Positions 50,597 through 52,645 of a stretch of DNA of 55,973 bases are shown here, piece after piece (position 1 is the stretch's first letter; each line of letters starts with the position of its first letter). Under the pieces are notes generated by a model. The model ran no database searches, was not told the origin of the DNA, and saw only the letters and a list, made by a program, of their open reading frames with translations. The stretch covers positions 1,736 through 57,708 of the forward strand of contig CAZINR010000002.1 of the NCBI GenBank assembly GCA_964540655.1, given 5' to 3'. The stretch comes from an uncultured archaeon (lineage in GTDB: Archaea > Altiarchaeota > Altiarchaeia > JAFGQM01). Made by a program: the position numbers and the translations under genes.

Positions 50597-52156
50597 ATGG
50601 CAGCGGAGGAGCTCATAATACCCGGCCTGGCCTGCATGGGCATCGCTGGTTTCCTGCTCTACCGCCTTTTCAGGGGCCGCGGGCCCGGCGACGAGATGTC
50701 CCGCCTCGAGCTGAGGACGAAGCAGCTCAAGGATTTGATAAAGACCACCCGCCTCGACTTCTACAAGCGGAGGATAGAGGGCGACAAGGCCGACAAGCTG
50801 ATAAGAGAGTATGAAGAGGAGCTCTCCCTCGCCAGCAAGCAGATAGAGGGCATGCGCAAGAAATACGGCGGCTCTAAAGCCTCTGGGGGATTGTCCAGCC
50901 CGAAGGGCATAGCCACTCTGGCGGCGGCCGTGGCGCTCTTCGTTTTGGGGCTGTTCTTGCTACTCGGCGCGCTCAGAGAGCCTCCGGATGCGATGGGCCC
51001 GGAGCTCTACGACGAGTTCTCTGGCGGCGGCCCCGAGGATTGCTCTTCTATTACGGACCTAGATAATCGTGACCGGTGCTATGAAGACAAGGTGGAGAGC
51101 ATGGCCGATGAGAATCCTCAAAAAGCAGCCCAATACTGCGACAGGGTCTCTGATTCGGAGATGAGGGACGAATGTTATCGCAAGGTTAGTTCTGAAGCCG
51201 TAGACCGGAACCTATCTCTGGCCCTGGATCTTTGCGGCAAGATCGGGGGCGAGGCCGATTCAAAGGAATGCTATTGGAATCTGCTTCAGGAGTATGAAGA
51301 TTTCATAGTGAAGCATCCTGACAAGGCCTTGGGACTCTGCGATTTGGTTTCCGAGAGCGACTCTGACGACTGCTTTTATACAGTCGCGAATCGTCTAAAA
51401 GAGCAGGACGTCCAGAAGGCAATCAGAGCTTGCCTGGGGATAGGCAACAAGAATCGCAGGGATGACTGTCTTTTCAACAACGCAGTGCGGGCTATGGACA
51501 ACGAGTCCGCGATATTGCAGATATGCAAGGAGTACATGGGAGAGAATCGCAGGGAAGATTGCCTCAAGATTGCCTGTTCCCAGGATTTCATACTGGGGAA
51601 TCCTGAAATTGCAAGAGAGGACTGCTGCGGCTCTATGGATAGCGGCATGGCCGGAGACTGCTATATCCGGATAGCCATGCTTATGGCGCAATCCGACCTT
51701 GATTTCGCTTTGGAGACCTGCGGGATGATGGAAAGCACTCCCTTCGGCAGGCCACCAGACGACTGTTATAGGTCGGTGATGGAGTCTGCGGAGAGCACAT
51801 CCGAGAAAATCCAGGTCTGCCGCCACGTCTCCGGGGCCTGGAGCGAGGAGAAATGCCTGCAGGACCTGATGTGGTCCGCCGAGACCTGCCGGGAGATTAT
51901 CGAGGTGTGTGAGAACCTGGATGATGAATTTTGCGAGATGAAGGGCATAATAGACAACAACTACGGGGGGATGGTCAAAGACTGCCCTCAAACCGCAATC
52001 GATGTCTGCCTGGATATCGGCAATGAGCAGCAGTCCGACAACTGCCTCCGGAGGGTGGCCGAGATACTCGCCTCCGACAACCCGTCCATGGCCCGTAAGG
52101 CCTGCAACGAGATAGAGGACGAGTGGCAGAGGGACAGCTGCAAGGACAAGCTCTAA
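50597..52156 (+). CDS. membrane-anchored cysteine-repeat protein
   Basis: TM plus coiled-coil N-terminus, then at least 12 repeats of an acidic-x-C-aromatic/aliphatic motif (DRCYEDKV, DECYRKVS, KECYWNLL, DDCFYTVA, DDCLFNNA, EDCLKIAC, GDCYIRIA, DDCYRSVM...). Confidence 0.6.
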   Translation: MAAEELIIPGLACMGIAGFLLYRLFRGRGPGDEMSRLELRTKQLKDLIKTTRLDFYKRRIEGDKADKLIREYEEELSLASKQIEGMRKKYGGSKASGGLSSPKGIATLAAAVALFVLGLFLLLGALREPPDAMGPELYDEFSGGGPEDCSSITDLDNRDRCYEDKVESMADENPQKAAQYCDRVSDSEMRDECYRKVSSEAVDRNLSLALDLCGKIGGEADSKECYWNLLQEYEDFIVKHPDKALGLCDLVSESDSDDCFYTVANRLKEQDVQKAIRACLGIGNKNRRDDCLFNNAVRAMDNESAILQICKEYMGENRREDCLKIACSQDFILGNPEIAREDCCGSMDSGMAGDCYIRIAMLMAQSDLDFALETCGMMESTPFGRPPDDCYRSVMESAESTSEKIQVCRHVSGAWSEEKCLQDLMWSAETCREIIEVCENLDDEFCEMKGIIDNNYGGMVKDCPQTAIDVCLDIGNEQQSDNCLRRVAEILASDNPSMARKACNEIEDEWQRDSCKDKL

Positions 52157-52159
52157 ACA

Positions 52160-52400
52160 AAGTAGCGGATCCGCCGGTTCGAGCGAATGCGAGAAGCACG
52201 CTTCACGACACGAAGTTCACAAAAGTGAACTTGTGCCCAATTTGGCTTTGCCAAATTCGGGAGTGAAGCGAAGGGGCCGTCGAGCATACGCTAAGCCTTG
52301 GTAAGACGGACCCGCCGGGATGTTGAGAAGAAACCTTCCTTAGCATAAGCTTCTCGACATAAGGCGGGACCGGCCGAGGCTGAGCTAAGGCATATGAGGA
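52160..52400 (+). repeat. tRNA-Arg-anchored gene-less junction copies JR1/JR2
   Basis: Degenerate copy gcggatccgccggttcgagcg at about 52165-52186. Exact 16-nt copy gacggacccgccggga at 52305-52320. Hairpin double-module at 52204-52263. The flank gctaag is also duplicated. Confidence 0.7.
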
Positions 52401-52533
52401 CGGACCCGCCGGGATTCGAACCCGGGTCACGGGATCTCTTCAACCATCTCAGCTCCCCGTTTTGGGGATAAAACACCTTTTTTGAAAGGGGTTTCCGAAG
52501 TCCCGTAGTATATCCTGGCTAACCCACGGGCCC
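52401..52533 (-). tRNA. tRNA-Arg(TCG) with a 59-nt intron at 37/38
   Basis: Manual fold: GGGCCCG-TG-GGTT-AGCCAGGATA-TACT-A-CGGGA-CTTCGG[intron]A-TCCCG-TGAC-CCGGG-TTCGAAT-CCCGG-CGGGTCC-G. The D-stem has one mismatch. Confidence 0.75.
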
Positions 52534-52645
52534 GCGCGCGTAGGTGCTTTTTATTAGAACTTTACTTAAATTAAACCCAAGCAGGCATCCAGCAAGCTGG
52601 AGGGACTTTTATTGTTCGTTTTCATATAGATACTCTCACAATAAA

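Follow-up and report, generated by a model that had tools for sequence, protein, structure and literature searches.

The tRNA-Arg(TCG) gene in the archaeal DNA studied here is followed by copies of its own 3' end that enclose no gene, which raises the question of whether these repeats are what an array leaves behind when its cargo is lost, or elements in their own right. The window, as the whole stretch of 55,973 nt is called, comes from a metagenome-assembled archaeal genome (G000, 1.3 Mb in 85 contigs, 80% complete). A reading of the window made before any database search (the sequence-only reading) took the repeats to be junction copies, a minimal or empty state of the same system as at other loci. 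The comparisons described below show that the repeats bound gene-less occupants of a tRNA-anchored integration site, and that these belong to a family of ~90-nt hairpins in which a stem copies the end of the hairpin's own tRNA. No description of such tRNA-matched units was found in the literature, the family is apparently undescribed so far.

The tRNA gene itself, which carries an intron (Table 1), was missed by ARAGORN at default settings and by Rfam at the gathering threshold, its acceptor and T-arm do align in the E-value mode of Rfam and orthologues are found in G001, G002, G005 and G007. The sequence that is repeated at every unit end, here the core or X, is made up of the 3' strand of the T-stem, the 3' strand of the acceptor, the discriminator and 2 further nt, and a core of the same kind delimits units and cassettes behind other tRNAs. 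Much of what had been read from the letters holds. The 16-mer GACGGACCCGCCGGGA, reported as duplicated, is present exactly twice, and the observed number of matches was reached by none of 100 shuffles; the flank thought to be partly duplicated as well forms a repeat of 41 nt with 76% identity (52281-52321 against 52375-52415), which is the TTAGC...CTCG linker common to two successive units; and the more decayed copy is real, a 12-mer with one mismatch that continues into a T-loop-like sequence. The region had also been described as enclosing no ORF, and there is indeed no credible one between the core copies, with no Pfam match for the four frames of 44-75 aa that overlap the region. Beyond the array a 519-aa Cys-rich, membrane-anchored protein without a Pfam family is encoded at 50597-52156, ending 7 nt from the distal core copy. 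Its gene adjoins the array in G001 and is missing from that position in G002, a shorter Cys-rich gene lies beyond the tRNA-Arg array in G007, and a homologue search with the 519-aa ORF led to the G001-type locus only.

Table 1. Features of the tRNA-Arg(TCG) locus and of related loci; positions are those of the window unless another locus is named.
Feature	Position	Strand	Basis or remark
tRNA-Arg(TCG) gene, 59-nt intron	52398..52534	minus	ARAGORN, introns allowed (C2 c[54133,54269])
Core X in tRNA-Arg(TCG)	52399..52414	minus	exact 16-mer repeat
Proximal gene-less unit, type A	52305..52398	minus	covariance model R1: 80 bits, E = 5e-20
Proximal unit, linker	52376-52398	minus
Proximal unit, X'	52363-52375	minus
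Proximal unit, 3-nt bubble side, TTA	52360-52362	minus
Proximal unit, inner stem	52351-52359 paired with 52321-52329	minus
Proximal unit, apex	52330-52350	minus
Proximal unit, core copy	52305-52320	minus
Distal gene-less unit, second interior type, decayed	52163..52304	minus	repeat families D1 + D3
Distal unit, linker	52281-52304	minus
Distal unit, weak X' (ACGGCCCC)	52273-52280	minus
Distal unit, stem GCTTCAC/GTGAAGC	52200-52206 with 52263-52269	minus
Distal unit, core copy with 2-3 changes and T-loop-like TTCGA	52165-52182	minus
53-nt double-hairpin mobile module, in loop of distal unit's hairpin	52209..52261	.	indel in strain X3
tRNA-Arg(TCG) in G000			two units
tRNA-Arg(TCG) in G001			one unit, different apex type
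tRNA-Arg(TCG) in G002			two units
tRNA-Arg(TCG) in G005			one unit
tRNA-Arg(TCG) in G007			two gene-less units, opposite order, then 743-nt RelE/antitoxin cassette bounded by core
tRNA-Arg(TCG) in G003			0 units; tyrosine-integrase gene directly behind tRNA
Tyrosine integrase behind tRNA-Ser(TGA)	L252 (G002:C6) 946-2184
Tyrosine integrase behind tRNA-Thr(GGT)	L251 (G003:C38) 1709-2993
Tyrosine integrase behind tRNA-Tyr	L253 (G002:C64) 1701-2811

The arrangement at tRNA-Arg(TCG) recurs throughout the genome. When the 3' flanks of all 32 tRNAs detected in G000 were searched for the last 13 nt of their own tRNA, the core recurred in the direct sense at +85 to +109 behind 18-19 of them, and in the inverted sense at +31 to +37. 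A unit begins with the T-rich TTAGC...CTCG linker, followed by X', a palindromic interior and X, where X' is the reverse complement of the core and extends 2-3 nt past the discriminator. After the linker the unit is an imperfect palindrome of ~75 nt in which X' pairs with the direct core X over the outer 12 bp, inside these lies an almost invariant unpaired bubble of 3+4 nt and then an inner stem of 9 bp, and every unit examined folds one long hairpin. The outer box of a unit is therefore the tRNA-specific core with its complement, while the inner box is ATGTCGAG/CTCGACAT-like. Placed at a fixed offset, X' agrees with its own tRNA in 9-11 of 12 positions, compared to a mean of ~7.3 for the cores of other tRNAs; this match is seen in the short units, with most junctions of cargo cassettes at background. 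The 5' acceptor strand of the same tRNA was rejected as the source of X', as X' pairs 2-3 nt past the discriminator and continues in a way that is unlike the tRNA 5' end.

The hairpin shows strong covariation. An alignment of 13 units with a structure set by hand has 86% of its cells paired against 70% in shuffles, none of 500 shuffles reaching 86%, and both sides change in 16 of the 21 pairs, with slid controls at 32-47%. In a set of 99 units drawn from 8 genomes, own partners give an outer helix with 8.9 of 12 pairs formed, swapped partners one with 5.9 of 12, and the inner helix has 8.05 of 9. The bubble is 3+4 nt in 84 of the 99 units, and in 84 of the 99 the outer helix cannot be extended into it by even one pair; its 5' side is mostly TTA and its 3' side is TCCC, from the tRNA T-stem. 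The structure is conserved while the sequence of the units drifts to ~50% identity, and interiors sharing a core are only slightly more alike (0.55-0.65) than others (0.49-0.53) when orthologues are compared with paralogues. Mismatches in the 99 units have no strand bias (90 G:T against 97 A:C), therefore neither one folded strand nor an RNA is singled out. A known structured RNA was rejected on the grounds that Rfam gave only weak, tRNA-derived matches in E-value mode and that there is no G:U strand bias. Inspection by eye led to the rejection of three further candidates: a C/D or H/ACA guide RNA, with features inconsistent across units and no visible box motifs, a pseudoknot between linker and apex, and an inner stem derived from the T-loop, both of which were inconsistent across units.

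A covariance model built from the 13-unit alignment was run on the 8 genomes of the window's family (f1) and on 53 others. It found 107 units, in 8 of 8 genomes of the family with 3-20 in each, and none in the 53 genomes, which belong to 8 other families of the class. The units are uniform in length (83-98 nt in ~100 units) and always oriented as the tRNA, about two thirds lie directly behind a tRNA T-arm and the remainder behind another unit or core copy, and they are also found distally within cargo arrays and beside isolated tRNA fragments. Around ten JGI metagenome contigs carry units, no viral contig was found to have one, and the one viral contig that matched the apex motif did so by chance, within coding DNA.

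Against this background the proximal unit of the window is a regular member of the family-specific class of ~90-nt units, pairing at 11 of 12 positions of the outer helix and 8 of 9 of the inner one in the register of the alignment, and folding as a hairpin with z = -2.7 in the tRNA sense and z = -5.45 for the complementary strand. The distal unit (fold z = -4.55) has a linker of the same type and an interior that is unlike that of the proximal unit, being related instead to the unit behind tRNA-Pro(TGG). It represents a second interior type, is older and has decayed, a 53-nt module was inserted into it later, and G002 has an orthologue of it without the module.

Behind the same tRNA the number of units ranges from 0 to 2 among the relatives, with apex types and unit order varying as well (Table 1). 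The sequence-only reading had foreseen occupied versions of the locus, and two exist, the toxin-antitoxin cassette of G007 and the integrase gene of G003. With unit numbers of 0, 1 or 2 and occupied alleles present, the repeats are not the invariant tRNA trailer that it had named as the outcome fatal to its idea. It had further supposed that the repeats can persist or propagate without cargo, which is borne out by near-identical tandem gene-less units in G003, where tRNA-Val(GAC) is followed by three units, of which two are identical but for 1 nt; the orthologous tRNA-Val(GAC) of G000 has 0 units before the same downstream gene. A strain that is 95-99% identical to the window (contigs of run X3) combines a G002-like proximal unit with G000-like flanks and carries an additional 842 letters at the array's outer edge, just beyond the distal core copy. 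Comparison ruled out that these letters are the cargo cassette of G007.

Some further loci have unusual cores or arrangements. At L010 (G005:C7, 1499-1740) two tandem units have the common core cccgcgcaggtccg and the core of the adjacent tRNA is cccgccgggtccg, differing at three positions, therefore the unit cores are not simply copied from the neighbouring tRNA. At L142 (G004:C25, 40-260) a unit in the tRNA-Ala array has the hybrid core cccggc/ggccgcac and is followed by the flank that normally lies behind tRNA-Gly(TCC) in the same genome (L023), which suggests an exchange between arrays with the crossover in the CCCGG(C) part common to both cores. On contig C39 of G000 (1000-2410, L171) units lie behind an undetected, intron-rich tRNA on the minus strand, and ~900 nt from it is an isolated T-arm fragment with a unit in the opposite orientation, an arrangement that may be an inversion between core copies.

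The cargo cassettes behind tRNAs are the other occupants of these sites. Tyrosine integrase genes lie behind tRNAs in G002 and G003, starting 60-100 nt behind them, and the products of those at tRNA-Ser(TGA) of G002 and tRNA-Thr(GGT) of G003 (363 and 370 aa, PF00589) have 61% identity and an N-terminal WDNNRIY motif in common. From core to integrase start, the arm agrees with the left arms of the integrase-less cargo cassettes of G000 in 38 of 43 and in 55 of 69 positions. As these arms match, the cargo cassettes are most likely non-autonomous relatives of the integrase-bearing elements, and the integrases are a candidate enzyme for the integrase-less cargo arrays. A search for PF00589 gave no match in the incomplete assemblies G000, G001, G005 and G007.

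The GTCT-repeat arms common to cargo cassettes and integrase-bearing elements have no counterpart in the unit behind tRNA-Arg. Units that have nothing in common with the arms of cargo cassettes are not what remains of cassette junctions, and the proposal that they are junction copies or scars of cargo loss fails on this point. The description of the locus as an empty state of the same system survives in part: it is an integration hot spot in a gene-less state, but one whose occupants do not share arms with the cargo cassettes. X' too is present in the short units and not consistently at cargo junctions. The hairpin units are a class distinct from the cargo cassettes that uses the same core.

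Of the known systems, one that is close in layout is the integron, whose attC sites have an unpaired spacer at the centre, between an outer and an inner paired box, and an apex that varies, and which is now known from archaea (Ghaly et al., bioRxiv 10.1101/2022.02.06.479319). The likeness lies in arrays where each unit ends in the same core, in the existence of gene-less (ORF-less) members, and in a covarying hairpin with 12 bp, a bubble of 3+4 nt (84 of 99), 9 bp and a variable apex. The differences are that the arrays are anchored at the 3' ends of the individual tRNA genes and not at an attI beside intI, that the core differs between tRNAs and X' follows it, that the attC motifs R'' RYYYAAC and R' GTTRRRY do not occur, and that cargo cassettes at the same tRNA sites lack the hairpin. 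Nor is there an IntI or attI, as G000 (80% complete) has no PF00589 match and the array starts at the tRNA.

A second parallel is the CTX-phage, which exploits Xer through an attP(+) site that, as a folded single strand, forms a hairpin imitating dif (PMC3442271). There, as here, a stem rebuilds a duplex copy of the chromosomal target with its central region unpaired, and an inverted half-site remains beside the junction after integration. The units differ from it in being only ~90 nt long, with no phage genome, replication gene or dif, in having a tRNA end as target, and in that a single-stranded form is here hypothetical. Archaeal elements with tRNA-targeting tyrosine integrases (SSV, pTN3/pT26-2 and SNJ2 types) can integrate in tandem (PMC8371274; PMC5861418), and the present arrays resemble them in having inserts with the tRNA 3' end directly repeated at either side, in tandem occupation, and in the integrases of the relatives that lie directly behind tRNAs with arms matching the G000 cargo cassettes. 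The units differ from such elements as they have no integrase gene, ORF or arm repeats, and have instead a tRNA-matched palindrome that has not been reported for att sites of the SSV, pTN3 or SNJ2 type.

By analogy with attC, the units may be minimal cargo-free cassettes with a hairpin that, once folded, imitates the attachment site of the tRNA, a reading to which we give about an even chance. When one DNA strand folds, the hairpin would form a duplex mimic of the attachment site in the tRNA gene with its centre unpaired, so that a site-specific recombinase could insert and excise units at X, and slippage or unequal exchange between the 13-16-nt copies of X could change copy number and give tandem copies. 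The candidate enzyme family would be the tyrosine integrases found directly behind tRNAs in the relatives, with arms as in the G000 cargo cassettes. No recombinase linked to the hairpin units was found, nor circular or free forms of the units, the contigs have no excision joint, and, with mismatches free of strand bias, no one strand is marked as the one that folds. X' matches more than 18 different tRNAs, and the mimic model leaves the origin of the match unexplained. More tentatively, and we hold this to be rather doubtful, each tRNA gene could have an attC-like folded site of its own, and the units could act as landing pads, or as minimal cassettes, in an integron-like system of gene capture anchored at tRNAs, in which X' would be rewritten from the target by a templated step of no described recombinase system.

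The consistent orientation of the units, mostly right behind the tRNA, counts against a mobile reading and fits a host-encoded function too. In such a case the units would accompany tRNA genes as a conserved accessory passed on by vertical inheritance, serving as a terminator or insulator, a processing signal of the 3' trailer or a decoy att site that shields the tRNA from integrases, with copy number changing by slippage between cores only. In its favour, every one of the 8 family genomes has units, always oriented as the tRNA and some two thirds of them directly behind the T-arm, their structure is kept while the sequence drifts to ~50% identity, no recombinase or free form was found, and slippage at 13-16-nt repeats can yield tandem copies. 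It is the chief rival of the mimic reading, but we consider it unlikely, because orthologous tRNAs may have a unit in one genome and lack it in another, with swaps of apex type among species of a single genus, because units also lie distally in cargo arrays and beside isolated tRNA fragments, and because the core can be unlike that of the adjacent tRNA (G005) or a hybrid from another tRNA (G004). The G:U bias typical of RNA is also absent, and a T-rich, terminator-like stretch precedes the hairpin, therefore co-transcription with the tRNA is doubtful.

The repeats could instead be remnants of gene deletion from ordinary cassettes, for which one might cite the decay of the distal unit, the 842 extra letters that adjoin it in strain X3, and the truncated units and arms that occur at array ends. 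It is difficult to see ~100 units of uniform length and conserved architecture as scars, though, and their dissimilarity to cargo arms, an X' specific to short units and the existence of near-identical tandem duplicates make this a very improbable explanation of the family, one that for the proximal unit is largely refuted. A miniature transposon inserting at a fixed distance from the T-loop, with the core copy as a target-site duplication of ~15 nt, would have a precedent in casposons, which insert at tRNA 3' ends with target duplication. The direct repeat would then match each tRNA automatically, the uniform length and the position next to the T-arm would follow, and small hairpin modules are numerous in the genome, which also has two IS200-type Y1 transposases. 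Yet target duplication does not explain an internal inverted X' that matches each tRNA, neither copying of X' from the target on insertion nor units at new sites with an X' that fails to match were seen, the IS200 end hairpins are unrelated, and in place of the conserved terminal inverted repeats that go with target duplication in a MITE the outermost 12 nt vary by locus, following the tRNA, all of which makes this explanation improbable.

Should the hairpins prove to be recombination sites, the folded-strand target mimicry of integrons and CTX-phage would have been invented a second time, independently, in archaea and across dozens of tRNA genes rather than at one attI, which would help to explain how integrase-less cassettes, with toxin-antitoxin and defence genes for the most part, come to be stacked behind the tRNAs of these small genomes. 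For those cargo arrays, the integrases with matching arms in relatives provide a concrete candidate enzyme. The tRNA-matched X' calls either for templated writing or for selection that upholds ~100 separate matched hairpins.

The double hairpin within the distal unit is a separate matter. The sequence-only reading had set its limits at 52204-52263 and ascribed it to the same grammar as the hairpins at other loci. The strong fold is confirmed (z = -5.8), but the double hairpin does not belong to the grammar of the units, it is a separate inserted module. Its limits are 52209-52261 because strain X3 lacks exactly these 53 nt, having at the empty site the simple hairpin GCTTCAC-GAA-GTGAAGC. At least 14 copies that follow the strict pattern are found in the G000 genome, some within tRNA introns, and in G003 such a module is present in one of two duplicate units.

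REP, BIME and REPIN palindromic repeats go with RAYT/IS200-like Y1 transposases. The 53-nt module, and it alone, resembles them in being a small double hairpin with discrete presence/absence polymorphism and many dispersed copies, in its fixed junction words and variable stems, and in the Y1 transposase genes of the genome; it differs in that the insertion sites of modules of its type are other hairpins and tRNA introns. G000 has two stand-alone genes for IS200-type Y1 transposases (C27:98-568 and C49:9268-9627), which have end hairpins of their own, CCCCGGCAT-GAA-ATGCCGGGG. These end hairpins differ from the 53-nt modules and are unrelated to the units; it is possible that the transposases mobilise small hairpin modules. 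The tRNA-Arg introns of G002 (L002, ~1560-1640) and G007 (L007, 1540-1580) have repeats of the CAGTCTTCAGTCC / GTTTTCAGTCC type that are cassette-arm-like, the intron of the window's tRNA-Arg is unrelated to these, and the same small repeats seem to colonise tRNA introns here.
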